A DNA stretch of 32,000 bases from Candidatus Iainarchaeum sp. (GCA_016205145.1 JACQJH010000002.1:240001-272000); one strand, 5' to 3'; counted from the first letter of the stretch, positions 2,806 to 31,365 are shown. The notes: a model not told the origin generated them from the letters alone. Numbers and translations: made by a program.

Positions 2806-5475
2806 TCAGCCCGGCTCGAAAACGCTGTCCTTGAACTTTTTGTCGATTTTTGCAAGGCAGTGCGGAACGTTCTTGCAGTCTTCCTCGCCGAACGTGACGG
2901 TGACAGATGCCATGTCAGTCCTCGGGCTCCCGTCGCTTGTGCTGCCGAACTGGCACGCAACGAACTTGTGCTGTTCATTGAGGCCCATTTCGGAAACAGG
3001 CCTGCCGTCAATGGAAAACACGGGCCAGAAATAAGCCGCAGTCCTGTTGCCGAGCGAAAATTCCGACAACCCTTCCCTTGAAAAAATCTGGGTCTTGCCG
3101 GTTGAAACCGCGCCGTTGTCGCCGGAAACTACAAATGATGCGTTCGAGAAAGTTATGGATTGCGTGGCAAACACTTCAACCTGCACCACTTCAGCTTCGG
3201 AGGAACTCGGAGTGGTTGCCGACGGAACCTGCTGCGTTGAACCTGCGGATGTGCCGGTTCCGCCGCCAACAATGCTTGCCTGCTGAGGCGCCTGGTTCCA
3301 GCCCTGCCTGACTCCCTGCACAAAAGACGAAACCGCGTTGACCGCACCGATTACAACGCCTTTGACTGCCGAGCCAAGCCATGCGCCAAATCTTCCGGTC
3401 GCCCTGCCGGCCGAGCCTGCGACATTTGAAACCGTGACATCCTGCTGCAGTCCTGCAACCAAAACCTTGGCCGGGCCGATGGCAACAGTGAATTTGGAAA
3501 CGCCGCCAAGCAATGCCTCACTGTAAGCCGGGCCTGCCAATGGCGCGGCATTCGCGGTCGCAAGAATGCCGGTGTCGGCGCCCGCCGCCGCAAAGTCCTT
3601 TTTCACGTTGTCCGCTTCATCGCCTGAAACGGTTTCAGTGAACAGATTAGGGTCCAGCCCGGTGTTCGAGGCATCGGGTTTCTTTTTCACAGTATCGTTG
3701 TTTTTCGCGTCAATCAAATACCTTGCAACCGCGGCCGGATTCTTGTAGTAATACGTGACATACTTGTAATCCACGCTGTCCGTCTTCTGCTCAGATGTTT
3801 TTATCTGGTCGATTTTTTTCTGCCCGTTCTCCTCGTAAGCCGATCCGTCTGCAAGGGCGCCGGAAACGTCTGCCGGGTGCGCATAGGAAATGGGCGTTTT
3901 TTTGTCGCCGGCAATTCTCAAAACCTGCCTGGGATAAACCGCGGTTATTTCATAAGCCGCATTTGCCGGGACGGCCGCGCCGCTTCCGCCAGCGCCCGTG
4001 CCTTCAGCTGTGCCGCCGGCGCTTGACGGCTCAACGCTTGAAATGTAGTCCTCGCGGATTTTCGAGCGGATGTCCGAGCAAATCTTCGTGGAATCCGCGG
4101 TTGCGTCGGCAACAGACAAATAAAGCTCCTTGTCGGTGTCGGCGCCGTCCAATTTCAAAAAGAATGGTGCAAGCGTTTCAAGCCTCGCATCCTTCCACTC
4201 CTTTGTGCCGGCAAGATTTCTTGCCCCGACCTTGAAGGAGTCCCCTGACTGGACTATGATCTGGTCAAAAACCAGGTTGCCGTTAAGCTGTGTCGGATAC
4301 TCTATCGTGCCTTCGGGGGTAAGCCTGAACGTCACAAAGCCCCATGGGTCGGCGTCATCATCCGACGGTATTACACTGCAATTGCTTGAACTCCACTTTG
4401 TTCCGGCACCGATTTTGCCTGCATCCATGCCAACACAATAAGTGTAAATGCCGGGCTGAGGCGCCTGAACGCTTGACATCCCATCGAAAATATTGCGGAT
4501 GTTCGCAGAACAGCCGTGCGTCACTGCAGTGCCATTTTTCAGGCCGGTTTCAATTTTGCCCCACAGCATCTGCTTCCAGTCGTTCGGCCCGAGATTCAGG
4601 AAAAAGCCCTCGCTTGCAATGACCGGCCTGGAAACGCCGTTGTCCGTCAAAACCCTTGCATCGGCATAGCCCTGGTAATCGTCCTTTATTATGTCCTGCT
4701 CGGAATCCGGCGTGAAAATCTTGTTCGCCCTTTCATCCTCCCTGAAGCAGGTGCTGCCGTCAATGCTGGGCTGGGCGGCGCGCCACAAAAAGATTTTTGC
4801 CGGAAGCTTTGCCTTTACCTCGCTTTCAAAGCCCGTTGAAGGCCTGACGGCAAAGGCAATCGTCCGCTGGTCCGCGCGCTTTGTCGCCCTGACGTCAATG
4901 ACATTGTGCCCAAACGGGGCGCCGGCGGCATCCCTCAATTCCGGGTCGAACTTTCCGGTAAAAACGCCCGGCGAAAACGCCCTCTTGCCTCCCGAACTAA
5001 CATCACAATAGCATACATCCGTTCCGGAGCAGGCCCAGCCGTAAGCCTTTTTCTCTTCCTTGCCCCAGACAACATTCCAGTTTTCGCCCGGCGAAGAGGA
5101 AGCGCATTTTGCATCCGTGCCCGAACCGTTCCAGGCACCGCATTGGCCGGAACAGGTCAGTTTTGGCGCGGGCGCAACCGAACGCGAAGAAGAACCGGAA
5201 GACCTTGAACCGCCGCGCTTTGTAACAGTCCTGGCAGAGCCGGAAGAATCAGGCTTCGGCGCAGGAGCCACGGCAGGAGAAGCCCCAGCAACGGTAAAAG
5301 CGGTGGGCGTTATATTCACTATTTGAACAGGGGCGGGGGGAGTTGTAGCACGCGGGATTGCGGATGGAGCCGGCGGTGCCTGTCCTTGGACAAAAATGAA
5401 AACCGCGGAAAATGCTGCGAGCGCAAGCAAAAGCGCCAAAAAGTGTTTTCGATTGAAGCCGGACAAACGCGACAT
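2806..5475 (-). CDS. Large secreted protein (889 aa), no family recognised
   Basis: Long ORF with an N-terminal hydrophobic signal/anchor (HFLALLLALAAFSAVFIFVQG), P/A/S-rich spacers and a Cys-rich stretch (CSGQCGAWNGSGTDAKC...CSGTDVCYC). An amphipathic Gly-rich hydrophobic segment (GRFGAWLGSAVKGVVIGAVNAV) follows. After an S/T/G linker, the C-terminal module (AAYFWPVF...FVACQFGSTSDGS) resembles the C-termini of the three L proteins upstream. Confidence 0.8.
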   Translation of the reverse strand: MSRLSGFNRKHFLALLLALAAFSAVFIFVQGQAPPAPSAIPRATTPPAPVQIVNITPTAFTVAGASPAVAPAPKPDSSGSARTVTKRGGSRSSGSSSRSVAPAPKLTCSGQCGAWNGSGTDAKCASSSPGENWNVVWGKEEKKAYGWACSGTDVCYCDVSSGGKRAFSPGVFTGKFDPELRDAAGAPFGHNVIDVRATKRADQRTIAFAVRPSTGFESEVKAKLPAKIFLWRAAQPSIDGSTCFREDERANKIFTPDSEQDIIKDDYQGYADARVLTDNGVSRPVIASEGFFLNLGPNDWKQMLWGKIETGLKNGTAVTHGCSANIRNIFDGMSSVQAPQPGIYTYCVGMDAGKIGAGTKWSSSNCSVIPSDDDADPWGFVTFRLTPEGTIEYPTQLNGNLVFDQIIVQSGDSFKVGARNLAGTKEWKDARLETLAPFFLKLDGADTDKELYLSVADATADSTKICSDIRSKIREDYISSVEPSSAGGTAEGTGAGGSGAAVPANAAYEITAVYPRQVLRIAGDKKTPISYAHPADVSGALADGSAYEENGQKKIDQIKTSEQKTDSVDYKYVTYYYKNPAAVARYLIDAKNNDTVKKKPDASNTGLDPNLFTETVSGDEADNVKKDFAAAGADTGILATANAAPLAGPAYSEALLGGVSKFTVAIGPAKVLVAGLQQDVTVSNVAGSAGRATGRFGAWLGSAVKGVVIGAVNAVSSFVQGVRQGWNQAPQQASIVGGGTGTSAGSTQQVPSATTPSSSEAEVVQVEVFATQSITFSNASFVVSGDNGAVSTGKTQIFSREGLSEFSLGNRTAAYFWPVFSIDGRPVSEMGLNEQHKFVACQFGSTSDGSPRTDMASVTVTFGEEDCKNVPHCLAKIDKKFKDSVFEPG

Positions 5476-5565
5476 TCCAACGCACTCCGCAAAAACCTTT
5501 CCACACCAAAGCCGATAAAAACCAAATTAACTGATTAATGCAATAAGACTATTAGCGATTTTCTG

Positions 5566-5573
5566 TATAAAAA
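5566..5573 (-). promoter_or_regulatory. Candidate archaeal TATA box (minus strand cATTTTTATAc) upstream of the 889 aa gene
   Basis: The reverse complement of 5561-5578 is aaacATTTTTATAcagaa. It lies in the 113 nt gap between 5589 and 5475. The same 9-mer ATTTTTATA recurs at 7389-7396 and 11474-11481. It sits 91 nt upstream of the ATG, implying a long leader. Confidence 0.35.
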
Positions 5574-5588
5574 TGTTTTCCCTGCAAA

Positions 5589-6758
5589 TCAAATCCATCC
5601 CGAAGACTTACCCTGGCATGATCCTGAAGTGCCGGACTTTGTGCACTCAAATGATACCCAGAACCCGCCACCGCCATCATATAATGTCTCCAACTCGAAA
5701 TAGCCGGTCCACGCCCTCGCACTGTAATACCTCCAAAAATATCCTTTAGGAAGCCCCGACGCAGTATACCGTGCAACAACCCCGCCTTGAAGCTCCGGCG
5801 TAAGACTGCCCGGATACTCGGCAACCTTGGTCCGCGCACGGGTTCCATTGGAATTCTGCACCAAAAAAAGCGTTGCCGACGTGATTGTTTTGCCCGGCGC
5901 CTCCAGGGAAGGCAAGAGAACCAGGAAAGAATTCGCGGGCGGCGCAGAAGGGGCAGGACCCGGCGAAGGAGAAGGGCCCGGAGCAGGACCGGGGGAAGGC
6001 GCTGGCGCGGTTCCGCCAAGACCGGCATCAACCATTGCTTTGGCCGCGCCGTCTTTGGTCCCATACCGGACATATTCAATGTTTGCAATCAAGGTTTCGC
6101 CAAGACCGGCAGTGCCGGCACGGTAATTTGCAGCCAAGATCCGAACGGTCAGGACAATGGTGTCATTCGGATAATCGGGGCTTATGAAACTGAAAGGCGC
6201 TGAACGCGTTGTCTGGACATATTTTGGGCCAGCACTGGTTGGATACGGAATCCTGCCGGTAACAGGGTCCATCTGCGCTTTCAACCGGCTTGCAATGACA
6301 CCCACATCATCGCCCATTTCAAGCCAGGCGAACCGTTCCATTGGCGCGTTAGAACCGGAAAGCGTTGGTGCAGGCGCCTGCTTGAAAGTAGTCAGTATGC
6401 GCGGGTCGCGGTAATGCGTGTCCAATCCCAAGTCGAAGCCTTTGACATTCACTTTCGGCGTCCAAGTCCCGTAAACGCCAATATCAATGCCGCCCTTTCC
6501 GCCATCGGGATGAGAACCAAGACAAAATGACAGGTAAAGCTCGCCATCATTGGCCTGGGGGGCGCCCCTATAGCGGTCGGCGCATCCGGGAAGTATTCCT
6601 GCAACCACGATTTGGCTTCGTTTGATTTCAGTTGTTTGGGCAAATGCGGCGGAAGCGAACAAAACAGTGGCGAAAACCAAAACCGCAATCTTTTTTGTTT
6701 GCCCGGCCATTCCACACACTTTGAAATTATTGTTGCTTGTTGTTTTATGCGTTTTCAT
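5589..6758 (-). CDS. Secreted protein L3 (389 aa), third copy of the L family (shares only the linker and C-terminal module)
   Basis: Signal peptide MAGQTKKIAVLVFATVLFASAAFAQT if translation starts at the ATG at 6710. The ATG at 6758 would overlap the upstream gene by 14 nt. Pro-rich linker APAPSPGPAPGPSPSPGPAPSAPP, then a C-terminal module PANSFLVLLPS...GYFWRYY...GFWVSFECTKSGTSGSCQ that aligns with L1 and L2. Confidence 0.8.
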   Translation of the reverse strand: MKTHKTTSNNNFKVCGMAGQTKKIAVLVFATVLFASAAFAQTTEIKRSQIVVAGILPGCADRYRGAPQANDGELYLSFCLGSHPDGGKGGIDIGVYGTWTPKVNVKGFDLGLDTHYRDPRILTTFKQAPAPTLSGSNAPMERFAWLEMGDDVGVIASRLKAQMDPVTGRIPYPTSAGPKYVQTTRSAPFSFISPDYPNDTIVLTVRILAANYRAGTAGLGETLIANIEYVRYGTKDGAAKAMVDAGLGGTAPAPSPGPAPGPSPSPGPAPSAPPANSFLVLLPSLEAPGKTITSATLFLVQNSNGTRARTKVAEYPGSLTPELQGGVVARYTASGLPKGYFWRYYSARAWTGYFELETLYDGGGGFWVSFECTKSGTSGSCQGKSSGWI

Positions 6759-7353
6759 CCGCGCACAATTCCTTCAAATCCGCGGCGTTTGCATGCACGA
6801 CAATGAAAGAATCCTCCGCATTTTCAACCAGGACAAAATCCGCGCCGAAAACCGTTTTTTTCGCCTCATCCGGAAACGACTTGTTGAATTCCGAAATTTT
6901 TTCCGAAAAGGTTTCGGCTTTGTCCAAAAAAACCGCGAACGCCAAGTCAAGTTCCACGAAATCCGAAAGCCTTCCGCAGGCGGAAACATCTTCCGGCTTT
7001 GAATCCATGAAAGCCTTCAGCACAGCCGCCTTTGCGCGCGCATCCTTTTTGGTTTCAAGATAGTCAACAAGCAGAAGGTTTAATTCCTTGAACTGCGCAA
7101 AGCCATTGCTGTTGCCGCTGGCCGCGGAAAGCTCGGCCCTCAAACCCGAAAACCGGTCGGGCAAAATGTTTTCCGCGGCTTCCGGCCCGGCCGGCGAAAC
7201 CTTTCCAATGTCAACGCCGTATTTGAGCCAGACGCCCTTGATTGCGTTGTAATCGCTTCCGGCATTCTGCACGAAAAAGACTGCAAGCAGGGCAAGCGCA
7301 ATCACAAGCAAAATTCCGGCCAAGAATATTTTGCGCAAGACAAAAACCTCCAA
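6745..7353 (-). CDS. Small signal-anchored protein S3 (202 aa), member of the S family
   Basis: One N-terminal TM helix (IFLAGILLVIALALLAVFFV). It aligns by eye with S1 and S2 at LRAELSAASGNSNGF, ACGRLSDFVELDLAFAVFLDKAETFSEKISEFNKSFP and C-terminal LKELCADEN. Both Cys positions are conserved. Confidence 0.8.
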   Translation of the reverse strand: MEVFVLRKIFLAGILLVIALALLAVFFVQNAGSDYNAIKGVWLKYGVDIGKVSPAGPEAAENILPDRFSGLRAELSAASGNSNGFAQFKELNLLLVDYLETKKDARAKAAVLKAFMDSKPEDVSACGRLSDFVELDLAFAVFLDKAETFSEKISEFNKSFPDEAKKTVFGADFVLVENAEDSFIVVHANAADLKELCADENA

Positions 7354-7388
7354 ACAAAATGCCAGTAAAAACTATTATTGAATTCCAA

Positions 7389-7396
7389 TATAAAAA
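7389..7396 (-). promoter_or_regulatory. Candidate archaeal TATA box (minus strand gATTTTTATAt) upstream of S3
   Basis: The reverse complement of 7385-7400 is cagATTTTTATAttgg. It lies in the 72 nt gap between L2 (ends 7426) and S3 (starts 7353), 36 nt upstream of the S3 ATG. Confidence 0.4.
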
Positions 7397-7425
7397 TCTG
7401 CCTTGAACGCCGGAAACGCCAAACA

Positions 7426-8895
7426 TCATTTTGCCGTGCCCGGCTTTGGCGAAGGCAGGCAGTCGCCGACCGGATTGCAGCCGCCGCGCTCGTTGCCGGA
7501 TGAAAAGCATTCGAAACTGCAGGCATAGCCTGAACCATCATCAAAAGTCGTGGCGACCGAAAATACTCCGGTGGACATTTCAGCGAGGTAATAGCGCCAA
7601 AAAATGCTCGTAACTTTTTTGTCGCGCTGCCTGTAGACGCCGCCGGCGGTGTCAAGCAGGCGCTCTGTGAGGCTTGAAAAATTCACAAGGCTTTCGCCCT
7701 GTTTTTTAAAAACCGCGACCGGCTCGACAATCGTCCTTCCTTGAGGTTCCGGAACAGGGAGGTAAATCAAAAAATTGGCCGGCACGGACGGGTGCCTTGT
7801 TGCTGCACCGCCGGCAGGCGGAGTCGTGGAAGAACCTCCAGATGGTGCCGGCGCAGTTCCGCCGCCGGGGGGAGCAGGCGCGGGAGCAGGCGTAGTGCCG
7901 CCATTGTTTTTCTCCGCTTCTTTCATTTCATCAAGAATCTTTTTCGCTTCAGCCGCTGCTTCGGGGGAAACTTCGCCGCAAGGCCATTGCCCTAAAAAAC
8001 TCGTTTTTGGGTCTATTTCAAGGTCGTCAAAGCTTATGCGCCCTGCCTTTCCCCTGCTCAGGTAAAGGTCCAATGTGACAATGCCATTGTACCTTGACTT
8101 GAACTTCAAAACATGGCTCTCATCGGCTTTTATGTTAACATTCCCCAGGCTGCCGCGTGAAACTATCGTGAAATTTATTTTGTTGCTTCCGGGAGTTTCA
8201 GGCAGCAATGTGGCATCATCCTTCCAAGACCTGCCGTCCGACTGCCTTGCTTCTGTGACAACGATTGTGGCGCTTCCGGAAGCGCCTTGCCTTGGAATGT
8301 TAAGGGTTCCTTTTTGGGTATGAATCCGGTAAATTGAGCTTATGCCCACAACGCTTGTTCCGCCGCCTGAAACGCCCGGGCACAAAACCAGATAGTCTTT
8401 TGTGTGAAGCACCGGCGCAGGCGTCGAACCCGTGGCGCCGACCGCGCGCAATCCAAGGTAAGCAAAAAAAGCATACACTCCGCCAACTGCGGTTATGCCT
8501 GCAAGTTTTACGCCAACAGGGATAAGCTTAGCCTTCCAAAGAAGCCTTATTGGTGCCCAGAACCATCGGGCCGTGCCGGCTATTGCCCTGCCTGCAAACC
8601 CTAAAGCTCCGCCCGCGGCTGTTTTGGCGGCAGCGCCCGCGCCGGCCGCGGTAACGCTGGCCGCTGGAAGCGCCCACCACAAAACCAATGCCAAAACAAT
8701 TGTCCCGATTATTCCGACGGTCCAGTTCCTGCCGGAATAATTCCTGATCCAGCCTTTCACGTTTTTCACGGTGTTCGGGCTTGAACCCTGCGTGTCGCCT
8801 TCAACGGTCGCAAAGGCGAAGTCCGCGGACAAAAGAATGAAAATCACGAACAGGCAGTAGAAAAAAGCCCTGCAAAAAAATTTTTTTGCTGCCAT
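7426..8895 (-). CDS. Secreted/membrane protein L2 (489 aa), L family
   Basis: Signal peptide ending FAFA-T, then a VKGW motif and a long Gly/Ala-rich hydrophobic region. The extracellular domain aligns with L1 at LCPG, YRI, NFTI, LKF, NGIVTL, ISFDDL and WPC. A P/G/A/T linker follows. C-terminal module PANFLIYLPVP...IFWRYY...YACSFECFSSGNERGGC. Its ATG directly abuts the S2 stop (TGAATG). Confidence 0.85.
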   Translation of the reverse strand: MAAKKFFCRAFFYCLFVIFILLSADFAFATVEGDTQGSSPNTVKNVKGWIRNYSGRNWTVGIIGTIVLALVLWWALPAASVTAAGAGAAAKTAAGGALGFAGRAIAGTARWFWAPIRLLWKAKLIPVGVKLAGITAVGGVYAFFAYLGLRAVGATGSTPAPVLHTKDYLVLCPGVSGGGTSVVGISSIYRIHTQKGTLNIPRQGASGSATIVVTEARQSDGRSWKDDATLLPETPGSNKINFTIVSRGSLGNVNIKADESHVLKFKSRYNGIVTLDLYLSRGKAGRISFDDLEIDPKTSFLGQWPCGEVSPEAAAEAKKILDEMKEAEKNNGGTTPAPAPAPPGGGTAPAPSGGSSTTPPAGGAATRHPSVPANFLIYLPVPEPQGRTIVEPVAVFKKQGESLVNFSSLTERLLDTAGGVYRQRDKKVTSIFWRYYLAEMSTGVFSVATTFDDGSGYACSFECFSSGNERGGCNPVGDCLPSPKPGTAK

Positions 8896-9516
8896 TCAGC
8901 CAGCCTCCGCAATGGCTTTTTCTTCCTCGCAACCGGCCTTCAGCCATGAAAGCATTTCTTCCAAATCCGAAACCCTCTGGCCGTCAACCGGCCACAAAAC
9001 ATCGCTGTTTGAAATGTTGCCAAGCCCGGAATAAACCGCAGGATAGTTTGATTCCAATGACACCATGCCCGCTTCAAGTTTTTGCGACGAGGACAGAGCG
9101 CTTTTTGCGTTTGAAACGGTTTGTTCAAGCAAAGGAATGCTGGGGCACAATTCCACGGACTCATAAGCGGAATCATATGCTGCTTCAAATTCCAGCGAAG
9201 ACGCGACAAACTTTCCAGTGTCCTGCCCCGCGTCAACCGCGCTTGCGGCAACCTTTGCCGCTTCTGCCCATCGGCCCCGGTTGGTTGACGCAAAACCCTC
9301 AAGCCTTTTTTTCAAGGCAGATGCTTCGGCATCATCCAAAAGCATTGCGGATTCCACAACCAAGCCTGATGCAGGGCTTACGCCAGCATCGGAAAGAATT
9401 GCCTGAAACTTCTGTTCCGCGGACATTGGCTTCGTTGGCGGCAGGAAAAAAAAGTATAATCCCAAAAGCAATGCTATGACCGCGATGCCAACCAAGGCTT
9501 TTACAAGAAAACCCAT
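8896..9516 (-). CDS. Small signal-anchored protein S2 (206 aa), S family
   Basis: N-terminal TM helix (LVGIAVIALLLGLYFFFL). Conserved blocks LKKRLEGFASTNRGRW, LCPSIPLLEQTVSNAKSALSSSQKLEAGMVSLESNYPAV and LKAGCEEE match S1 and S3. Confidence 0.85.
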   Translation of the reverse strand: MGFLVKALVGIAVIALLLGLYFFFLPPTKPMSAEQKFQAILSDAGVSPASGLVVESAMLLDDAEASALKKRLEGFASTNRGRWAEAAKVAASAVDAGQDTGKFVASSLEFEAAYDSAYESVELCPSIPLLEQTVSNAKSALSSSQKLEAGMVSLESNYPAVYSGLGNISNSDVLWPVDGQRVSDLEEMLSWLKAGCEEEKAIAEAG

Positions 9517-9528
9517 CTGCTCAGCCTA

Positions 9529-10791
9529 TTAATCTACCGCTTTCGAAAGAACGCCTTGAGTACGTGCCTGACAAGAAAGCGCGCCATCTGGGTTGGCACA
9601 ATTAAAGGTGGCACCGGAATAAACCGCGCCATTGGAATATAATGCCCCAAGCTTCCAGCCGCCCAGCGGCACTGACACAGTGTATTGATAGAATTTCTGG
9701 CCGCCAAACGTGAAAATCTTTGCCCTGCCGCTCGCATCAGTCCTCGCAAATTTGTCGGTCTCCACAATAGGCGTGTCATCCGAATTGCGAATCCTCAAAA
9801 CATCAACCGTTACACTGCCGCCTGGCGCAGGCACATAAACGTAAGCAGGGTAAATCGGTTGACCGCTAGTCTGCTGCAAGGCCGGCGCGGCGGGCGCTGG
9901 CGTGGAACCGCCGGACCCCGGTGCATTGCCTGCCGGCGGAGCAGAAGCCCCGGCATTCTGGGCTTTGGCAATTGCTGCCCCTGCCTGAGTCTTAAGCGCT
10001 TCAGAAATCGCAGAACACGGATTTTGCCCCGAAATTGTCGAACCCTGAGCCAAAAGGAGGTCATTCCAGCGTATCCCGCCTTTTGCCTGCGAAGCGTTCA
10101 GCACAATGGTTATTTCGCCGTTCAAATTAGAAACATATTTGAGAGTAGCCGGATTGTTTTTCAGATTGCTTATATATCCGTGCACGCCACCCCTTGATTC
10201 CGCCCACGTTGCAATGGTGAAGCTTACGGGTTGCGTTCCAATCGAAGTCCACCGCGCATCAGCACCCGCTTCCTGAACTTCAATATTCGCGGTAACTGGC
10301 GCATTTGTGTTGAACGTCCAATCACGATAAGAAGGCATGACCACTTGCCGGGCAATTATCTTATAGAATCCGGATTGGCCTTTCCCGTCTTCGGAAGGTG
10401 AAAAAGGGCAAATGTTTGCAAAGCCGTTTGCGACAAAGGCTTGGTCCCCCGTGGGCCTTGCACCATAACGATAACCCAAAAAACCCAAAGCGCCGACTAA
10501 ACCGGATCCAACAAGTCTGCCGATAACAGCCTTTGCGGTCAGTCCGGCTGCCCCTTTAGCAAGACCGCTTGCCAGCCAGCCGCCGGGAATAAAAACACCA
10601 ACAAGGACAGATACGCCAGTAACACCCCACGCAACGTACCTTTCACCCTGATTTATCGTCCAGCCCGTCACGTTTGCAGTGTGCGCGTTATCAGGGTAGG
10701 TCACGCCTTTTATCGTGGCAAACGCGTAGGAAGAACTCAACAGGATGAAAGCGGAAAAAAGGACCAAAAAGTTTGTGAAGCGCATTTTCAT
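9529..10791 (-). CDS. Secreted/membrane protein L1 (420 aa), L family
   Basis: Signal peptide ending YAFA-T, then a VTGW motif and a Gly-rich hydrophobic region (GWLASGLAKGAAGLTAKAVIGRLVGSGLVGALGFLGY). The domain is homologous to L2. Linker ASAPPAGNAPGSGGSTPAPAAP. C-terminal module PAYVYVPAP...KFYQYT...ATFNCANPDGALSC. Confidence 0.85.
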   Translation of the reverse strand: MKMRFTNFLVLFSAFILLSSSYAFATIKGVTYPDNAHTANVTGWTINQGERYVAWGVTGVSVLVGVFIPGGWLASGLAKGAAGLTAKAVIGRLVGSGLVGALGFLGYRYGARPTGDQAFVANGFANICPFSPSEDGKGQSGFYKIIARQVVMPSYRDWTFNTNAPVTANIEVQEAGADARWTSIGTQPVSFTIATWAESRGGVHGYISNLKNNPATLKYVSNLNGEITIVLNASQAKGGIRWNDLLLAQGSTISGQNPCSAISEALKTQAGAAIAKAQNAGASAPPAGNAPGSGGSTPAPAAPALQQTSGQPIYPAYVYVPAPGGSVTVDVLRIRNSDDTPIVETDKFARTDASGRAKIFTFGGQKFYQYTVSVPLGGWKLGALYSNGAVYSGATFNCANPDGALSCQARTQGVLSKAVD

Positions 10792-10815: not shown

Positions 10816-11430
10816 TTATTCTTGATTGGCGTCAAAGTTAACTTCCGGGTTTTCGCAGTCGGCTTTGAGGCCCGCATTGAAAGTTTCGGATTCCGAAATC
10901 GTTTCCTGCGTCGGCGCAACAAGCCCGTCGCCCTCGGCCAAAATCTTCACTGAAGAAAGAACATTCGGATAATTCTTTTCAAGCGATTTTATTTTCGATT
11001 CAAAAACGGTTTTTGACTGCGCCAGCTTTTTTGAAACATCAACAAAGCTTTGCAACGAATCCATGCCGGGGCACAGGTCGGGCCAGTCCGACATTCCTGT
11101 AAAAAGCGCGGCGCGCCCGTTCGACGAATTGATGAAAACCGCGTAATTTTCTGAATAGTCCACCAAAGATGAAAGTGCGGAGCCCATTTCCTTCCATCCC
11201 CCGCTTTGCCCGGCCGAAAATTCTTCCAAATCAGCTTTCAATGCCAGGCGCTTTGAAGATTCAAGCACCATGGTTTTGTCGGCAAGGTAATCGGATTCCG
11301 CGTTTACGCCGTATTTGGCGTAAACCGATTTGAGTTCAGTGAAAGCGCCTGCAGGACCGGAAAAAAACAGCACGTATCCCGCGGCCAAAACCGCCAAGAC
11401 AACGATTGCAACCAAAAATTTGTTCGCCAT
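10816..11430 (-). CDS. Small signal-anchored protein S1 (about 204 aa), S family
   Basis: The track ORF is 10816..11472 and starts at a TTG. The in-frame ATG at 11430 (MANKFLVAIVVLAVLAAGYVLFF) gives a normal signal anchor and leaves room for the TATA-like box at 11474-11481. Conserved blocks LKADLEEFSAGQSGGW, LCPGMDSLQSFVDVSKKLAQSKTVFESKIKSLEKNYPNV and LKADCENPE. Confidence 0.8.
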   Translation of the reverse strand: MANKFLVAIVVLAVLAAGYVLFFSGPAGAFTELKSVYAKYGVNAESDYLADKTMVLESSKRLALKADLEEFSAGQSGGWKEMGSALSSLVDYSENYAVFINSSNGRAALFTGMSDWPDLCPGMDSLQSFVDVSKKLAQSKTVFESKIKSLEKNYPNVLSSVKILAEGDGLVAPTQETISESETFNAGLKADCENPEVNFDANQE

Positions 11431-11473
11431 TTTCCCGCCGTTTTGCTTTTCGTTAATTACATTGGTTTGCAAG

Positions 11474-11492: not shown

Positions 11493-12368
11493 TCAGGGCA
11501 CGCGCCTTTGCATTCTAATCGGTTTTTTTTTGCCCCACAAGCCTTTCACTATTGCCTGCCTTCCGCGCACAGCCGAAACCCTTGGCGTCAAAACGGTCCT
11601 GCCGGCGGTGCGCACGGCGCCAGTAATTGCCCTTCCGGTTCCCCTTGCAAGCCTTCTTCCAAAACCCGGACCGGATGGCGCGGCTCTGACTGTTCCAGGC
11701 AAATCAACGTATCTTCCCCGGATTCCATTCATCCGCGCGTCAACTCCTGCAAGCGCCCGCCTGAAAGCTGACATGTGCTTTGGAGCGTAAGACCTTGGGC
11801 CTCTTTGTGCGATTCGTTCGCGTTGTGCGCGCAACGCATTGTAGGCTCTTGCATCCCTTGGACTCATTGTCAGGCCATGCTGCGTGCCAACGTAATGCGA
11901 GCCGGAAAACTGCCTTGCCGGATTCTCGGCCGCCTTGCCTTGCTCGCCGCGCTCGCCCTGCAGGCCTTGGGGACCGGGTTCGCCTTGCACGCCCTGCAAG
12001 CCCTGCAAACCTTGTTCACCACGCTCACCCTGCAGGCCAGGCAAGCCGCCACCGCCTCCACCGCCAGCAGGCGCAGGACCTGGAGCAGGACCACCACCAG
12101 CAGGAGGGCTTGACGCCGGAGCAGGCGGCATAACGGGTGGCACTGGTGCCGGAGCAGGAGGAACAGGAGTCGGAGTTGGCGCAGGCGCTGGCGTGCGCGC
12201 GGCCCGTGCAGCCAAGGCAGCTTGCCTTTTCTCACGCCAAACAGGCCTTCGCCCCTTAAGCCCAAAAACCGGGCCGACCGGCGTCTTGGACAAAGCCCAG
12301 TCAACCGGCGCGGTTACAACCTTGGCGCCAAGCTTAGCAGTTTTCCACACCGCACCAAGAATGCCCAA
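11493..12368 (-). CDS. Collagen-like repeat protein (291 aa) with a Pro-rich spacer and a basic Arg-rich C-terminal half
   Basis: ORF with a TTG start at 12368, preceded by GGTGG 6 nt upstream on the minus strand. It has an amphipathic N-terminus, a P/A/T/V-rich stretch and a G7 run. Thirteen uninterrupted G-X-Y triplets follow (GLPGLQGERGEQGLQGLQGVQGEPGPQGLQGERGEQGKA). It is co-directional with its neighbours. Confidence 0.75.
   Translation of the reverse strand: MGILGAVWKTAKLGAKVVTAPVDWALSKTPVGPVFGLKGRRPVWREKRQAALAARAARTPAPAPTPTPVPPAPAPVPPVMPPAPASSPPAGGGPAPGPAPAGGGGGGGLPGLQGERGEQGLQGLQGVQGEPGPQGLQGERGEQGKAAENPARQFSGSHYVGTQHGLTMSPRDARAYNALRAQRERIAQRGPRSYAPKHMSAFRRALAGVDARMNGIRGRYVDLPGTVRAAPSGPGFGRRLARGTGRAITGAVRTAGRTVLTPRVSAVRGRQAIVKGLWGKKKPIRMQRRVP
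11931..12047 (-). repeat. Collagen-like (G-X-Y)x13 coding repeat
   Basis: Residues 108-146 of the 291 aa ORF. The first codons were checked base by base (12045-47 ggc G, 12042-44 ttg L, 12039-41 cct P). The DNA shows recurring ctgcaggcc/ctgcaagcc units. Confidence 0.85.
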
Positions 12369-12404: not shown

Positions 12405-13580
12405 CTAGACGCCCCCACTATCTTGTTCGCGTTCCAGTTGAGCCTTTAATGTATCCCTGCGTTGCCGCAAATCTGCAAGCGCGGCTTTAGCAGCATCTAC
12501 GTTCGCAGGCAAAACAGACAACTGCTCATCCAAGCGCTGCTTAGTGCCCGGAATTGCCTCCAAAGCCTGTTGAGCCAGCTTATACCGGCGTGCACCCTCT
12601 TGCTTCCACTGTCCCGCCAAACGCACCCGTTCCTCCGGACTTGAAACCGCCCACTCCCACCGCTGCCTCAACCAACGCCCATCAGCAAACGCCAGTGCAG
12701 CCACTTGAGCACGATGCGCATCCGCCCCTCTCTGCAACAAGCCATCCGATTCACGCTTAACCCTTGCAAGAGTAGCCTCCAAATCCTGCAAAGCCCTATC
12801 AGCACCCGCAACAGCCCTGTCGGCTTCCCTTAACGGCGCCAATCGGTCGCGCTCAGCCCGGCCGGCCCGCACAGACGCAGTGGCACTTGCAACACCGCTT
12901 CTCGCGGCAGTCAGCAACTTGCGCGCAGGACCCTGTTCGCCTGCAGGCCTTTGCCTTCTGCTCTGGTCTTCCAATAATGGCGGTGGTGCAGGAGATTCGA
13001 TTCCAGCCCGCGCACTATGCTCTAGCAAGCCAAGCTGGCCGCCCAAAGCCACGACTCGTCGGCGCAATTGCAATAGTTGGTGTAACGATTCCGCGGGAAG
13101 CTCAGTCCGGGAAACATCCCGAAGCTGGCGTTCTAAATCTATAAGCGTAGTAATAGCCATTTGTAACTCAGAGCCTATTTGCTGGCGTTCCTCATTCCGG
13201 CGCTCCGATTCAAGCATCCGCCGGCCGCTTGAAGTAAGCCGCATAACAGCCACTTGACTGGAAGTGCGATTTGGAATGGGTTCCATTAGTGTCGGAGCAA
13301 TTTGCTCCCAAGCACTCATCACTTCCCAGGCACCGGCGCGTAGCTCGCGCACAGCAGCCAGCCTAGCATGCGCTTCAGCGGCACCAGACTCAGCGACATG
13401 CTCGACATGCGCTTCAGGCTCTCCCAAATCCTCGCCCCGAAGATTGGCGCGAGCCCACGCCGCTGCAACATCCGGATCCCAATGTTCAGTGAAACGCGGG
13501 TCGCTCACATGCTGCCTGCGCCTTCTTCCGCCTTGGCCCTTGCCAGGACCCCCGCCTTCACGCGGCGGTTCACTAGCCAT
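12405..13580 (-). CDS. Arg/Ala-rich coiled-coil protein (391 aa), paralog A
   Basis: No signal peptide. The C-terminal ~155 aa align clearly with the 288 aa neighbour (RDRLAPLREADRAVAGADRALQDLEATLARVK...GRWLRQRWEWAVSSPEERVRLAGQW vs RRRLAPLRAANRAVSGAEKTLQGLEATLKRAR...GHWLRQRWERLVSNPEEKARLAEQW). No family recognised. Confidence 0.8.
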   Translation of the reverse strand: MASEPPREGGGPGKGQGGRRRRQHVSDPRFTEHWDPDVAAAWARANLRGEDLGEPEAHVEHVAESGAAEAHARLAAVRELRAGAWEVMSAWEQIAPTLMEPIPNRTSSQVAVMRLTSSGRRMLESERRNEERQQIGSELQMAITTLIDLERQLRDVSRTELPAESLHQLLQLRRRVVALGGQLGLLEHSARAGIESPAPPPLLEDQSRRQRPAGEQGPARKLLTAARSGVASATASVRAGRAERDRLAPLREADRAVAGADRALQDLEATLARVKRESDGLLQRGADAHRAQVAALAFADGRWLRQRWEWAVSSPEERVRLAGQWKQEGARRYKLAQQALEAIPGTKQRLDEQLSVLPANVDAAKAALADLRQRRDTLKAQLEREQDSGGV

Positions 13581-13708: not shown

Positions 13709-14575
13709 TCAGTTTCGTTCGCTGTCTTTGACTCCAAGCTCGGCGCGCAAAGTCTCTCTCTCGGACTGCGATTGTTCTAGCTTGGCCTGTGCCTCGGCTA
13801 TTTTCGAGGGCAGTTCATCCAATTGTGTTTCCAATCGCGCCCTAAGCCGCGGAATTTCAGCCAATTCCCGTTCGGCTAAAGCGTGGAGCCTTTCACCTTC
13901 GCGCATCCATTGCTCCGCCAAACGCGCCTTTTCCTCCGGATTTGAAACCAACCGTTCCCATCGCTGCCTGAGCCAGTGCCCATTCTTCCATGCCCGTGCC
14001 TTAACCAAGGCACGGTTCGCATTAGCCTCCCGTTGCGATAAACCATCAAATTCAAGCCGGGCTCTTTTGAGAGTAGCCTCCAAACCCTGCAAAGTTTTTT
14101 CAGCGCCTGAAACGGCCCTGTTGGCTGCCCTCAGCGGCGCCAATCGCCTGCGCTCAGCCAGCCTGCCTCTCACAAAAGTGCCAACACCTCGAATGCCGCG
14201 GCCTGTGCCGGCCAGGAGATCGCGGACGCCACGCTTGGGTGGCAATAAATTTAATCCCCTTGCCGTTCCATTGCGCGGGCGGCCCCTGCCTTGGCCCCTG
14301 CCAGGCGTCACACGCATGCCGGGTTCCTGATGCACACTAGAAAAATCCCCTGGCCCGGGAAAAACGGGTGGAATGTAAGGCGGTTGCCTTCTCCTTTCGC
14401 CCGGTAATGGTGCGGGTTCAAACCGGATAGGCGCCGTTGCGGGGTCCACGGCGCGCTGTCTGGGGCGCTGCCGGAAACCTGTTGCCGGACGGAAATCTGA
14501 TTCGCTTATCACGCCGTGGTCAACAAGCACTTGACCCAAAGTCTTCCTAGGCCTTTGGGGAGGAGTTTCAGCCAA
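13709..14575 (-). CDS. Arg-rich coiled-coil protein (288 aa), paralog B
   Basis: Pro/Arg/Gly-rich, probably disordered N-terminal half. The C-terminal coiled-coil domain is homologous to the 391 aa protein. No signal peptide. Confidence 0.8.
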   Translation of the reverse strand: MAETPPQRPRKTLGQVLVDHGVISESDFRPATGFRQRPRQRAVDPATAPIRFEPAPLPGERRRQPPYIPPVFPGPGDFSSVHQEPGMRVTPGRGQGRGRPRNGTARGLNLLPPKRGVRDLLAGTGRGIRGVGTFVRGRLAERRRLAPLRAANRAVSGAEKTLQGLEATLKRARLEFDGLSQREANANRALVKARAWKNGHWLRQRWERLVSNPEEKARLAEQWMREGERLHALAERELAEIPRLRARLETQLDELPSKIAEAQAKLEQSQSERETLRAELGVKDSERN

Positions 14576-19836: not shown

Positions 19837-21078
19837 TCATATTTTCAGGATTTGGGCATAAAGCTTTATGTAAGCCGCGGCATTCTTTTCAACACTAAAC
19901 AATTTAGCAGATAAAACTGAATCCGCGCACAATTTTGAACGCCTGTCAGAATCCAAGCCCATAACCCAAGCAAGCCCTTCAGCCAAACTTTCAGCATTTC
20001 CTGTTTTGGCGATAAAACCGGTTTTTTTGTGCCGGACAATTTCCGGTATGCCCCCGGCACCAAAAGCAATGACCGGCTTGCCGCATGCAAGCGCTTCCAA
20101 TACCGCCAATGGCTGATTATCAACCAGCGAAGGGGCAACAAATGCGTCGCTTGCGGAAAGCAATTCCGCAATGCGGTTCTCATCAGAAACAAATCCGGTT
20201 TTCTCGCCGGTTATGCCAGCGTTTTCAAAGTCAAAATCTCCTTCGCCAATCAAAAGCACTGTCGGTTCAAGGCCCTCGGATTTTATAATTTGAAGTGCCC
20301 TCACAAGAAATGGGAGGCCCTTGAATTCATTGCTGAGGTGCGCTGCCATAAACGACAGGACAAAAGCATTTTTTGGCAGACCAAGCCCTGCCCGAACCGA
20401 ATTTCTGTTTTTACGCGGGAAAAATGTTCTCGTGTCAACGCAATTCGGAATAACCGAATGGGAAAGCGGCGAAAGCAGACTTTTGCGTGCAAGGCCGCAC
20501 ATCCAATTCGACGGGGAAACGCACCAGACGCGCCCGGCGCATGCTTCAGCATCATTCTTCTTTATTTTCCACAAGAGCGATGCCGTGTCAATTAAAATAG
20601 GCGGGTATTCGCCCAAAAAAGGACACTTTTTACACCCGGAGAGCCATTTCTCGCACCGCCCCCCGCCCGCATAAACGCAATGGCCGGTGAAAGCCCACAT
20701 GTCCCGCATTGACCAGACAACCGGCTTTTCTTTCGCTGCCTGCCGGATTATCCCAATATTCAAATAACCCCCGAGCGTGTCATGAAAATGCAGCACATCC
20801 GCTTTTCTGACAGCATCGATTTTCATCAGCCGGCTAAAAGACGGCTGAAAAAAATACTGAAGACCCGAGACATCCTCCATTTTGCTGTAGATTCTTTTCC
20901 ACAATCCTTCGAAACCAAAACCGGACAAGGGAATAACATCCGGGTCGGCGGTGTATTTTGCCCCCACGACAAATTTAGAATCGTGACCAAACCCTCTCAA
21001 TGCCGAATGCAGCAGGTAAGCCGATTTTGACGAGCCGCCGCCCCCCCAATCACGATTGTGAATTTGCACTATTCGCAT
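19837..21078 (-). CDS. Glycosyltransferase, GT4 family (GT-B fold)
   Basis: Starting at the ATG at 21078 gives the typical MRIVQIHNRDWGGGGS N-terminus. The C-terminal half has the GT4 pattern (SLVDNQPLAVLEALACGKPVIAFGAGGIPEIV). The track ORF extends to 21147. Confidence 0.85.
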   Translation of the reverse strand: MRIVQIHNRDWGGGGSSKSAYLLHSALRGFGHDSKFVVGAKYTADPDVIPLSGFGFEGLWKRIYSKMEDVSGLQYFFQPSFSRLMKIDAVRKADVLHFHDTLGGYLNIGIIRQAAKEKPVVWSMRDMWAFTGHCVYAGGGRCEKWLSGCKKCPFLGEYPPILIDTASLLWKIKKNDAEACAGRVWCVSPSNWMCGLARKSLLSPLSHSVIPNCVDTRTFFPRKNRNSVRAGLGLPKNAFVLSFMAAHLSNEFKGLPFLVRALQIIKSEGLEPTVLLIGEGDFDFENAGITGEKTGFVSDENRIAELLSASDAFVAPSLVDNQPLAVLEALACGKPVIAFGAGGIPEIVRHKKTGFIAKTGNAESLAEGLAWVMGLDSDRRSKLCADSVLSAKLFSVEKNAAAYIKLYAQILKI

Positions 21079-21222
21079 ATACGCCGCCTTCCTAGCCCAA
21101 AACTTCACCAACGGGTTTCTCCAAAAAAAACGGCCCCAATTGCACAAGCCACAATCGAAAATTTTGGTAAGCCGTGAAAAAACATTGTCCGTTTTATAAG
21201 TTAAAAATATGCATAGGTGGCA

Positions 21223-23085
21223 TCAGAGAACATGCGAAGGTTTTTCATTCTCAAGGAAAATTTTGTTCCAGACCGCAAAAGACAAAAAGAGCCATTTTTG
21301 TGGGCCGCCCATGCGTTGTTTGTTTGCAATCATTCTTCTGACCACCGGCATATCAAAAAAATTTTCTAGCGTAGAATCTCTTTCGAAGAAAAACCTGCCC
21401 AACTGGCCGTCAAGGAAAGATGAAACCCACGGCAATTCCGGAAAACCAAAACCGGTTTTCTTGTCAAAAAGAATTGTTTCCGGAAGTTTTCCGGCAAGCG
21501 CTTTCCGGAAAATTATTTTCCTGCGCGAACCAGAATGCTTCAAATTAAATGGTATTGACATGGCATGGCTTGCAAAACCCTCATCCAAAAGCGGAACCCT
21601 GACTTCGAGCGAATTGTTCATTGACATCCTGTCAACCTTCACAAGAAGGTCATCGGGCAAATAAGTTTTCAAATCCTGGAAAAGCACCCTGTTCAGTCCC
21701 TCGCGTTTCGGCAAAGAATCACCGTATGCAAAAACAGCCTTTTTGGTCGAATAGCTTTCACGCGGCACGCCGTAAACAAACTGGTTTTTGCCTAAATCAA
21801 ATTGAATTTTGCGGTAAAAATGCAAATCACGCGGGCAATGTGAGTGAAACCTAAAATATTCATATAGCCGTGAGTTAAGCCCCGGAGAAACTTTGCCTAA
21901 AATGCGGCGAAAAAAAGCATTATACGTCAGGGAAGCCCCGCCCCACAACCGCCGAAACTTGTTGGAAAATAGCACATCATAGTTCGGATAGCCTGCAAAA
22001 AGCTCGTCGCCGCCATCACCTGCAAGAACACATTTGACATGTCTGGCCGCCAGTCCGGAAACTGCGTTTGTCGGAACCGCGGAATCGTCATAAAAAGGCT
22101 GGCCAAACCTGGCGATCAATAATGGAAAATCTTCCAAATGTTTTTTCCCAACCAAAATCTCGTGGTGTTTTGTGCCTAAAGCGGACGCGACAAGCCTTGC
22201 GTTCGGGAGTTCGCACTCATCACCTTCAAAGCCTGCTGAAAAGGTATTGAGATTATCAGCATTCTGGGTCGCCGCCCATGTCACCGCGCTGGAATCAACC
22301 CCGCCACTGAGAAAAACTCCGACAGGCGTGTCGGCAACCAGTTGGCTTTCAACCGAACGTGAAAGCAGTTCAGGAATGCGCGCAATCGACTCGGCTTCAC
22401 CGCCAAATTTTGACGGACCAGATGCAAGATTGGAGAATTGCCCCCGCCCAACCGTTTTTTCGGCTACATTGATTTCCAGGAAATGCCCCGGCAAAAGCGA
22501 CCGTATCCTCGAAAAAATCGTTTTGGGCGACAAAACGTAACCCAAAGTAAAGTAATCGGCCATTGCATCCGAATCTATTGATTTGTCAAACTGCGGGGCA
22601 AGCGTAAGCGGCTTTATTTCCGAGGAAAACAAAAATGAATCGCCATAATCTGAGTAAAACAGGGGTTTTATCCCGAACTGGTCGCGTGCAAGCAGGACAC
22701 GCGTTCTACCGGAATCAAAAAGTGCGAAGGCAAACTGACCGCGCAGTTTCCCAAAAAAGGAGTCGCCGAACTCCTCATAAGCGTGAACGATTGTTTCGGT
22801 GTCGGTTTTTGTGTAAAATCTGTGCCCACTGTCTTCAAGAAGTGCCCGCAGTTCCACGAAATTGAAAATTTCGCCGTTGAAAACAACCGCAATGCTTTTG
22901 TCCTCATTGAAAATAGGCTGGTTTCCGCCGGCAATGTCTATTATGCTCAACCGCTGGCTCGCCAAACTGACCTTGGCGTCATAAAAAAAACCTTTTCCGT
23001 CCGGACCGCGATGCTCCTGCAAGCTTGCCATCCGCTTAAGCAGACCCTTGTCCTCAAACCCGACAAAACCGCAGATGCCGCACAA
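21223..23085 (-). CDS. asnB: Asparagine synthase (glutamine-hydrolysing)-like amidotransferase, glycan-cluster type
   Basis: N-terminal CGICGF Ntn-amidotransferase nucleophile, plus the SGGVDSS PP-loop. The track start TTG 23091 gives MILCGI. Ntn enzymes need Cys directly after Met, so TTG at 23085 (M-CGICG) is the likely start. AGGTG lies 7 nt upstream of it, overlapping the upstream stop. Confidence 0.85.
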   Translation of the reverse strand: MCGICGFVGFEDKGLLKRMASLQEHRGPDGKGFFYDAKVSLASQRLSIIDIAGGNQPIFNEDKSIAVVFNGEIFNFVELRALLEDSGHRFYTKTDTETIVHAYEEFGDSFFGKLRGQFAFALFDSGRTRVLLARDQFGIKPLFYSDYGDSFLFSSEIKPLTLAPQFDKSIDSDAMADYFTLGYVLSPKTIFSRIRSLLPGHFLEINVAEKTVGRGQFSNLASGPSKFGGEAESIARIPELLSRSVESQLVADTPVGVFLSGGVDSSAVTWAATQNADNLNTFSAGFEGDECELPNARLVASALGTKHHEILVGKKHLEDFPLLIARFGQPFYDDSAVPTNAVSGLAARHVKCVLAGDGGDELFAGYPNYDVLFSNKFRRLWGGASLTYNAFFRRILGKVSPGLNSRLYEYFRFHSHCPRDLHFYRKIQFDLGKNQFVYGVPRESYSTKKAVFAYGDSLPKREGLNRVLFQDLKTYLPDDLLVKVDRMSMNNSLEVRVPLLDEGFASHAMSIPFNLKHSGSRRKIIFRKALAGKLPETILFDKKTGFGFPELPWVSSFLDGQLGRFFFERDSTLENFFDMPVVRRMIANKQRMGGPQKWLFLSFAVWNKIFLENEKPSHVL

Positions 23086-23095
23086 AATCAAACAC

Positions 23096-24316
23096 CTACT
23101 TTACCATACGCTCAAAAAATTCTTCAAATTGCCTTACAACCAAGGGAACATCAAAATCTTTTGCCCTTTTTTTCGCATTGGCTGAAAGGCGGCGGTGAAG
23201 GCGTTTGTCCGACAAAACCCTGACAACAGCTTTGGCCATGGCATCCGGATTGCCAACAGGGACGAGCAAGCCATTCCTGCCATGCGAAATAATTTCCTTT
23301 GGACCGGACTTGCAGTCGGCTGAAACCACCGGAATGCCCAAAGCCATTGCTTCAAGAACAACGTTGGGAAGCCCTTCATAACGCGAGGATAGAACAAAAA
23401 CATCCGCTTTCGAAAAAAACTTCCACGGATTCGATTGCCACCCCACAAAATCGACAAAATCCCGGACACCAAAACGCTCAGACAAAGCCAAAAGCGCTGC
23501 CAACTCAGGCCCCTCGCCAACAATAACAAGCCTGCAGTCAACATGACGGCGAACCAAACAAAAAGCATCCAACAAAATATCAAAACCCTTCTGCGGGACA
23601 AGCCTGCCGCACGCGACAATTATTGGCGGGTTATGTGCGGAAACCCGGGAGCGGTCAACTTTTTCTTTGCCGGCTTTTAAAACTGCGCCAATGTCAACAG
23701 GGTTGTAAATAGTGAAAACCTTGGCTGACGGCAAACCATAAACGCTGACAAGGGCGTTCGCAGTTTCTTTTGAATTTGTGATAATCGCATCCGCCACGGG
23801 ATAAAGCTTGCGGATAATTGCCGGCTCACTATCAGGCTCAAGCGGAGAAAAAGCCCTCTCGCTGACAATGGATTTGTATCCAAAAAACGGGGAAGAAAAA
23901 ACAGCCAAAAAATTTGGCAAAGGCAAGAGGCTGAAAACAATATCTGGCTTATCCCGCCCAAAAAAGTCGATAAGAGACCTTATGTGGAAAAAAAAACCAA
24001 AACTCAAATAGGCCGGGTAAGCGGCCTTTTTGGAGTTAGTATAACAAAAAACTGCACGCAAATCATTAACAAATTTTAAACAAATAGAATAAAGTTTCAA
24101 AAAAAATTTCAGACAAAAAAACTTAAAGCCGACATTAAGGCGGAGAAACTTCACCCCGACATCAAGCGGATAGTGTTTCCCGCTAACCAAGGCAACAATT
24201 GTAACATCGAATTTTTTTTTGTCGAGGTTGTTAGCCAAAACCTGCACAAACCGTTCAGCGCCTCCGGAATAGAGGTCATATAAAAAAAATGATATTTTGA
24301 TTCGTTTGCTCGCCAT
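23096..24316 (-). CDS. Glycosyltransferase, GT4 family
   Basis: The N-terminus KISFFLYDLYSGGAERFV and the C-terminal SSRYEGLPNVVLEAMALGIPVVSADCKSGPKEII (E-x7-E region) are typical of GT4 enzymes. Confidence 0.85.
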   Translation of the reverse strand: MASKRIKISFFLYDLYSGGAERFVQVLANNLDKKKFDVTIVALVSGKHYPLDVGVKFLRLNVGFKFFCLKFFLKLYSICLKFVNDLRAVFCYTNSKKAAYPAYLSFGFFFHIRSLIDFFGRDKPDIVFSLLPLPNFLAVFSSPFFGYKSIVSERAFSPLEPDSEPAIIRKLYPVADAIITNSKETANALVSVYGLPSAKVFTIYNPVDIGAVLKAGKEKVDRSRVSAHNPPIIVACGRLVPQKGFDILLDAFCLVRRHVDCRLVIVGEGPELAALLALSERFGVRDFVDFVGWQSNPWKFFSKADVFVLSSRYEGLPNVVLEAMALGIPVVSADCKSGPKEIISHGRNGLLVPVGNPDAMAKAVVRVLSDKRLHRRLSANAKKRAKDFDVPLVVRQFEEFFERMVK

Positions 24317-24423
24317 TCAAGTTAATTTAAAAGCCTTAAAATTTAAAACACATACCAAGAAATGCGTTAAAATACTAGTTTAAATAACAAAATTCCAATA
24401 CAACGGGGAAAAAAGACGGCAAC

Positions 24424-25388: not shown

Positions 25389-25412
25389 CCAGAAAACCAA
25401 TTATTTTCCCGG

Positions 25413-26819: not shown

Positions 26820-26828
26820 GCGGGAACT

Positions 26829-29447: not shown

Positions 29448-29460
29448 AAAAAAAAAGAAT

Positions 29461-31300: not shown

Positions 31301-31365
31301 AAAAACCACCAAATAAGGCAATGTATTTAATAGCAACAATCTAAAAAATTATTAGGATTGACTCA

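Follow-up and report, generated by a model that had tools for sequence, protein, structure and literature searches.

Judged by sequence comparison, L1, L2 and L3, three proteins encoded close together in the archaeal DNA examined here, share a homologous C-terminal domain of ~105–118 residues (the module), which in each case lies behind a linker rich in Pro, Ala, Gly, Ser and Thr. The DNA is a 32-kb stretch (JACQJH010000002.1, positions 240001–272000; hereafter the window, from whose first letter all positions are counted) of a 637-kb contig in a metagenome-assembled genome (MAG) of Candidatus Diapherotrites, a DPANN archaeon. Its proteins correspond to NCBI entries MBI4053263–MBI4053281, every one of which is annotated as hypothetical. 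The three carriers are encoded on the minus strand in a co-directional series, with the order collagen-like open reading frame (ORF), S1, L1, S2, L2, S3, L3, an 889-amino acid (aa) ORF and a class-V aminotransferase (SufS-like) gene, where S1, S2 and S3 are a second set of mutually homologous proteins. The module is a real but modest lineage-specific domain rather than a new general sorting system. It is best classed as a hitherto undescribed extracellular beta domain confined to one lineage, and as such it adds a family of ordinary type and not a new kind of system.

Homology of the C-terminal modules

The original prediction, made from this DNA alone, had placed a shared C-terminal module in L1, L2 and L3 and, more weakly, in the adjoining 889-aa protein. 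For the first three, its coordinates and ORFs were correct and correspond to the last 110–120 codons of each gene; the modules themselves occupy 9532–9858 in L1 (109 aa, the most divergent copy), 7429–7782 in L2 (118 aa) and 5592–5936 in L3 (115 aa), all on the minus strand, and end 1–12 residues before the stop codon. The landmarks by which the module had been recognized, a hydrophobic start, an aromatic block (FWRYY or FYQY) and a C-x8/9-C tail, align column for column in the three proteins. Using composition-corrected BLASTP, the L2 and L3 modules were matched with E = 4e-13 (33% identity over 110 aa) and the L1 and L3 modules with E = 3.5e-5; the L1–L2 pair taken alone was weak (E = 0.6). 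Smith–Waterman scores set against 1000 shuffles gave z values of 19.9 for L2–L3, 6.1 for L1–L3 and 2.4 for L1–L2, with the paralogous modules being mutually 19–33% identical. L1 was left out of a hidden Markov model (HMM) that combined the L2 and L3 modules of this species with those of the sister species described below. When run against 505 six-frame ORFs, a target set in which noise began at E >= 4, this HMM recovered the L1 modules with E values of 9e-6 and 3e-8.

To the notion that the similarity reflects composition, chance or recent gene conversion, with no real domain behind it, we give almost no weight. It draws on the weakness of the L1–L2 pair and on the chance-level similarity of the claimed fourth member, and it is opposed by the L2–L3 scores, the recovery of L1 by an HMM that omitted it, the purifying selection acting on the modules between the two species and the conservation of a strand-wise hydrophobic pattern (both described below). 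Gene conversion in particular is opposed by the 32-kb window, in which no DNA repeats were found between module copies. Compositional or chance similarity is refuted for L1, L2 and L3, and the earlier claim of a similarity beyond composition stands for these three.

L1 and L2 are paralogous along their full length. When a profile of L1 and L2 from the two species was compared with that of L3, a match of 98.6% probability (E = 1e-15) was obtained, with confident columns appearing only from the linker onward; comparison of the L3 passenger with the L1/L2 passenger revealed no detectable similarity (hhalign probability 0.2%). Since the confident columns start at the linker and the passengers alone give so low a probability, the shared unit is, at the level of profile comparison, linker plus module, carried on two passenger types. 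The N-terminal passengers had been described as differing, which holds for L3 and not for L1 and L2. Derivation of the L3 passenger from a diverged L1/L2 passenger was considered and dropped, as profile comparisons detect no relationship. An argument for module shuffling from the closeness of L2 and L3 was likewise rejected, because an unrooted tree of three clades consists of branch lengths and holds no topology information.

The secreted 889-aa protein (2806–5475, minus strand; 821 aa in its NCBI form), which adjoins the array, is on every comparison made no carrier of the module, and the carriers number three, not four. Against the three modules, its C terminus gave shuffle z values of 0.7–1.5 and BLASTP E values of at least 0.2 or no match. 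In hhalign the probability was 0.1–0.4%, even with the ortholog included, and a six-sequence module HMM run with filters off (--max) gave no match to the protein at E <= 10. Its earlier placement as a fourth member was ruled out on these four kinds of test. The C-terminal 135 aa (2809–3213) form a separate domain that is conserved in the ortholog, and no match to the protein was found in Pfam, NCBIfam, PHROGs or PDB sequences. Elsewhere in the protein, which is 70% identical overall between the two species, a Cys-rich stretch at aa ~105–181 (KLTCSGQC...FDPELR) is nearly invariant, and a Gly/Ala/Val-rich amphipathic segment lies at aa ~690–725, ahead of the 135-aa domain.

Predicted fold and distribution of the module

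For structure prediction of the L3 module, AlphaFold was used with a four-sequence alignment. The resulting model, with a predicted local distance difference test (pLDDT) score of 82 and a predicted template modelling (pTM) score of 0.76, comprises eight beta strands. Alternation of hydrophobic and polar residues at i/i+2 is present in every predicted strand and kept in six of six sequences, and insertions and deletions occur nowhere but between strands 4 and 5. The landmarks of the original prediction map onto this model, the hydrophobic start being strand 1, the aromatic block strand 5 and the Cys tail the hairpin of strands 7 and 8. A full-length model of L2 was also obtained; its pLDDT of 45 made it unusable for the passenger fold, and at this low confidence it showed strands at the equivalent module positions.

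Invariant residues in the six-sequence alignment are one Pro, one Tyr, two Gly and two Cys. The Cys pair is C398/C407 in L1 (9571–9600, CANPDGALSC), C463/C473 in L2 (7477–7509) and C372/C381 in L3 (5616–5645). In the L3 model, the corresponding residues C99 and C108 lie in strands 7 (92–102) and 8 (105–115), in exact cross-strand register at a two-residue turn, and from the DSSP string the invariant Cys probably form a disulfide that staples the last hairpin (C-x8/9-C). L2 has a second Cys pair, C459/C479 (7459–7521), which is nested around the first and kept in the ortholog. The module had been predicted to contain no transmembrane (TM) helix, and a hydropathy scan agreed: no hydrophobic helix was found near any C terminus, all TM-like segments being N-terminal. 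Nor was a conserved motif present at the linker–module junction in the alignment.

Searches for a known family were made with full proteins, isolated modules, profiles and the predicted structure. Nothing relevant was found for the full proteins in Pfam or NCBIfam (both at E <= 1) or in PHROGs, or for the six isolated modules in Pfam at E <= 10, and the module profile gave a single match, at E = 1, among all PDB sequences. Foldseek searches of the L3 module, which covered PDB and BFVD but no predicted-structure library of cellular proteins and are in that sense not exhaustive, returned nothing at E <= 1e-3. The best PDB matches were V-set immunoglobulin (Ig) domains, with E values of 0.08–0.5 and TM-scores of 0.3–0.46; the top match was nectin-1 D1 (E = 0.08, TMq 0.32), and the highest TMq among the matches listed was 0.46. 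In BFVD the best match had E = 0.14. Membership of a carbohydrate-binding module (CBM) or Ig family was taken to mean a profile match, or Foldseek E < 1e-3 together with TM > 0.5, and the module falls outside both; a remote structural relation to a known beta-sandwich family is possible. Thus the HMM of the C termini led to no existing described domain, comparison of the predicted structure with known folds gave no significant match, and the earlier statement that the module matches no described sorting, anchoring or carbohydrate-binding family is upheld across these resources. The literature on DPANN or Diapherotrites surface proteins yielded nothing specific.

Relatives of the module were sought with HMMER in 1.84 billion representative proteins, using a four-sequence profile that relatives scoring below ~35 bits would escape. 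At E <= 1e-3 this yielded three proteins, L3 from the window and, from a second organism, the orthologs of L1 and L2, so that the three L families were the only ones found. When L3 or the L1/L2 profile served as query, nothing came back beyond the query proteins and their orthologs in the sister species. Two scans of GTDB genomes, a collection outside which the source MAG itself lies, gave no matches, a scan of JGI metagenomes gave the sister contig only, and IMG/VR and a phage collection gave none. A word-indexed search with the three-module alignment was empty and missed even L2, a cluster representative in that set, so that its outcome is not evidence of absence.

On the sister-species contigs (L003, L004 and L001), the genes stand in the same order, collagen-like, S1, L1, S2, L2, S3, L3 and an 894-aa protein, with spacing nearly identical to that of the array in the window. 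The L1 ortholog, on contig L003, is 50% identical, and the L3 ortholog (P0021), encoded on both L001 and L003, 54–58% identical. Given ortholog identities of 47–55% for the L proteins and 42–71% for the S proteins, the two species are well diverged and the duplications are older than their split, and the best explanation for the spread of the module is ancient duplication within a tandem array of three S–L pairs. Between orthologs the modules are less conserved than the passengers (41–50% versus 55–68% identity). Values of 0.27–0.37 for the ratio of nonsynonymous to synonymous substitution rates (dN/dS) indicate purifying selection on the module, with dS being near saturation. A hypervariable C terminus of the type produced by diversity-generating retroelements was considered and rejected, as no direct repeat touches the module-coding regions in the 32-kb window and no template repeat, which would be a nearby copy of ~100–150 nt matching the 3′ end of the gene, was found there.

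Protein layout and candidate roles of the module

The L1 gene (9529–10791, minus strand, 420 aa) was characterized from its ORF, hydropathy and the ortholog on contig L003. L2 (7426–8895, minus strand, 489 aa) is its full-length paralog, and L3 (5589–6758, minus strand, 389 aa) combines a signal peptide with its own passenger, linker and module. In L1 and L2, a signal peptide that ends in AFA|T is followed by a ~25-residue conserved segment and two hydrophobic, Gly/Ala-rich TM-like segments. Next comes the passenger, which is beta-rich and contains a Cys pair, and after it a short Ala/Lys helix leads to the linker and the module. By hydropathy, the signal peptides lie at 10714–10791 in L1 and 8809–8895 in L2, and the TM-like segments at 10474–10635 in L1 and within 8449–8721 in L2 (all minus strand); from hydropathy and a low-confidence helical model, the two segments are read as a putative TM hairpin. 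L3 has a signal peptide and, by the same scan, no TM-like segment. The linkers, of 27–40 residues, occupy 9859–9975 in L1 (AIAKAQNAGASAPPAGNAPGSGGSTPAPAAPALQQTSGQ), 7783–7902 in L2 (GGTTPAPAPAPPGGGTAPAPSGGSSTTPPAGGAATRHPSV) and 5937–6017 in L3 (GGTAPAPSPGPAPGPSPSPGPAPSAPP), again on the minus strand. In PDB sequences, the L1/L2 profile had matches through its linker region alone, all of them to Ala/Pro-rich inter-domain segments of pyruvate dehydrogenase E2 chains, which supports the linker being a flexible tether.

Conservation along L1 is uneven. The signal peptide is 92% identical between the two species and the next 26 residues (10636–10713) 73%, far above the 37–55% of the rest of the protein; this short N-terminal segment (IKGVTYPDNA...VTGWTIN), read as extracellular, may have a function of its own.

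The S proteins are homologous to each other, each with a predicted N-terminal TM anchor and a ~170-residue ectodomain containing two invariant Cys. S1 (10816–11472, minus strand), whose true start is probably Met15 at 11430, as the ortholog suggests, lies 24 nucleotides (nt) upstream of L1. The paralog S2 (8896–9516, minus strand; E = 2e-15 to S1) has a stop codon that abuts the ATG of L2, and S3 (6745–7353, minus strand; E = 1e-4 to S1) overlaps the start of L3 by 14 nt. From S1 to L3 the successive intergenic spacers are 24, 12, 0, 72 and −14 nt. The S3/L3 overlap (6745–6758) obtains at the long L3 start (MKTHKTT) and is kept in the sister species; the NCBI annotation of L3 is shorter, 373 aa from Met17, and either start is possible. 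No match of the S proteins to cohesins or to any other family searched was found. Class III (pilin-type) signal peptides were considered for them and rejected, since the N termini have no consistent [KR][GA] cleavage motif, and they were treated as plain signal anchors.

The module is best read as a folded interaction domain that a flexible tether displays outside the cell, and not as a secretion or sorting signal. As to its partner, we propose tentatively, as the preferred and a plausible reading, that the module docks each L protein onto its homologous S partner. In L1 and L2, the signal peptide and putative TM hairpin would anchor the protein while the tether presented the module outside the cell, where it would offer a common surface by which each L engages its cognate membrane-anchored S. 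For L3, which appears to have no anchor of its own, S docking through the module would retain the protein on the cell. The strongest indirect argument is one of homology: the S proteins are homologous and each is tightly coupled to an L gene in both species, and the L proteins share only linker and module, so that the S–L interface, if it is homologous, must lie in the module.

The closest analogy to such docking is the dockerin–cohesin pair of the cellulosome, in which a C-terminal module behind a Pro/Thr-rich linker is borne by different passengers and docks to a cell-anchored partner. Dockerins (PF00404), however, are duplicated Ca-binding F-hand helical repeats of ~70 residues, whereas the module is predicted to be all-beta and has no Pfam match, and the partner role of S, in whose sequence no cohesin match was found, is a suggestion of the gene order. 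In the S-layer of Sulfolobales, a small membrane-anchored protein, SlaB (coiled-coil rich), is encoded beside the larger beta-rich outer protein SlaA in one operon. The S–L pairs resemble this arrangement in placing a small anchored protein gene beside that of a larger beta-rich protein; they differ in that SlaB is anchored C-terminally and S N-terminally, in comprising three diverged pairs instead of one, in the small size of the L proteins (389–489 aa) and in having no detected sequence similarity to any described family.

Several observations weigh against S docking or against the picture of the module on which it depends. Pairing of S with L is known from gene adjacency and overlap in two species alone, and two species are too few for an analysis of co-evolution. 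If their hydrophobic segments span the membrane, L1 and L2 need no S for anchoring. The module evolves faster than any other globular part of the proteins, as would be expected just as much of a head that faces outward and binds a ligand or host. The alignment behind the fold model comprised four sequences, and no structure in PDB or BFVD resembled the model significantly, so that its topology could be wrong, and the profile used for the distribution is for its part blind to distant relatives under ~35 bits.

Attachment to host cells is believed to be common among DPANN archaea, and the module could be an outward-facing adhesion or ligand-binding head for a host-cell or environmental glycan or protein, with the three paralogs representing three specificities and S acting as chaperone or stalk. 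This is the main rival to S docking and is possible, though on balance we doubt it. The module would be distal to the proposed N-terminal anchor and set off by a long flexible linker, its rate of evolution exceeds that of the passengers, its invariant residues are structural only, and conserved aromatics lie on both faces of strands 1 and 5 (Y8, W69 and Y71 in L3-module numbering), where by analogy with CBMs they could form an exposed patch. Ig-like domains and CBMs on Pro/Ala-rich tethers resemble the module in size, predicted all-beta character, predicted disulfide, conserved aromatics and tether. They part from it in that the Foldseek matches are not significant, no CBM, lectin or adhesin match was found by sequence or fold, and no recognizable binding-site residues, in particular no conserved polar or charged residues marking a common pocket, are present; an adhesion head would also leave the tight coupling of each L gene to a homologous S gene unexplained. 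Association of L proteins with one another, through homo- or hetero-oligomerization of the module into a lattice or fibre, is unlikely, as is a purely passive stabilizing cap. An identical type of domain does occur in all three paralogs, which would be co-expressed, hydrophobic residues lie on both faces of strand 5, and a collagen-like protein, of a typically trimer-forming kind, is encoded just upstream in both species; the 19–33% identity among paralogous modules is nevertheless low for a homotypic interface.

The original prediction had seen in the module the logic of sorting, anchoring or assembly. A constant linker–module unit at the extreme C terminus of at least two unrelated passenger types is in keeping with assembly or anchoring, which are plausible, while sorting is unlikely: in this archaeon the L proteins come with Sec-type signal peptides of their own, L1 and L2 also have N-terminal TM-like segments that would anchor them, the domain is predicted to be folded, no motif marks its junction with the linker, and the three carriers are in one operon. 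We accordingly regard it as highly improbable that the module acts as a C-terminal signal for sorting, secretion or attachment which dedicated machinery would recognize and then remove or link covalently. Its position behind a low-complexity linker, its occurrence on two unrelated passengers and its size and all-beta character do recall the C-terminal domain (CTD) of the type IX secretion system (T9SS) of Bacteroidota (Por_Secre_tail, PF18962/TIGR04183), an all-beta domain of ~70–100 residues found on unrelated secreted proteins. The T9SS is a bacterial system, and archaea of this kind are not known to have an outer membrane. Neither the full proteins (E <= 1) nor the modules (E <= 10) gave a profile match to the CTD, conserved terminal motifs are lacking, and the CTD has dozens of carriers across a genome, whereas here, in 1.84 billion proteins, just three carriers were found, paralogs of one tandem array in two related species, a distribution at odds with a sorting signal. 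With the PGF-CTERM, archaeosortase and exosortase signals the module shares an occurrence in archaeal surface proteins and a Ser/Thr/Pro-rich linker ahead of the C-terminal element. Those signals, however, consist of ~25–30 residues (motif, TM helix and basic tail) as opposed to a folded domain of ~110 residues with neither a hydrophobic helix nor a basic tail, and NCBIfam gave no match to PGF-CTERM or to other sorting families. A sorting signal would also be hard to square with a module that is less conserved than its cargo. Very unlikely, too, is a variant in which the module tags the cargo of a surface sorting or attachment system peculiar to this archaeal lineage, with each membrane-anchored S as the dedicated receptor or chaperone that would recognize the module of its cognate L and fix that L to the envelope, covalently or not. 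If true, archaea would have their own form of CTD- or dockerin-type display, without sequence relationship to either. The fourth member and the sorting-type logic are thus the two points at which the original prediction is corrected.

Most DPANN surface proteins lack annotation, and contact with other cells is among their possible roles. Were S docking to hold, the array would offer a concrete and testable candidate for the way in which part of the cell surface is built in one Diapherotrites lineage, namely from three diverged S–L pairs, each made up of a small anchored protein and a larger one that bears the common tethered domain. What is available now is an undescribed family of domains whose boundaries are clear and for which invariant residues and a fold prediction are given, and which could seed domain databases; its practical value is limited by its occurrence in two uncultivated species, with no detectable relatives and no functional handle.

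Neighbouring loci

The collagen-like ORF that heads the array (11493–12368, minus strand) encodes Gly-X-Y triplets in a very basic protein with no signal peptide evident by eye, and the gene occupies the same site upstream of S1 in the sister species. Its database matches (Collagen, the Lcl adhesin and phage tail-fibre families) are weak and all arise through the GXY repeats. Beyond it lie two paralogous Arg-rich ORFs of 391 and 288 aa (12405–13580 and 13709–14575, both minus strand), for which weak coiled-coil-type Pfam matches only, and no assignment to a family, were obtained. They share a 281-nt direct repeat (12593–12873 and 13894–14174) with 72% nt identity, and the stretch that contains them has the highest GC content in the window (0.61, compared with about 0.45–0.50 further right).

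A cell-envelope glycan assembly cluster was found at 19837–31339. It comprises three GT4-type glycosyltransferases, a Wzy_C (O-antigen ligase-like) membrane protein, a Bac_transf initiating sugar transferase and a DUF4330 protein, together with an asparagine synthase (as named by NCBI). The cluster may be relevant to glycosylation of the Ser/Thr/Pro-containing linkers of the L proteins.

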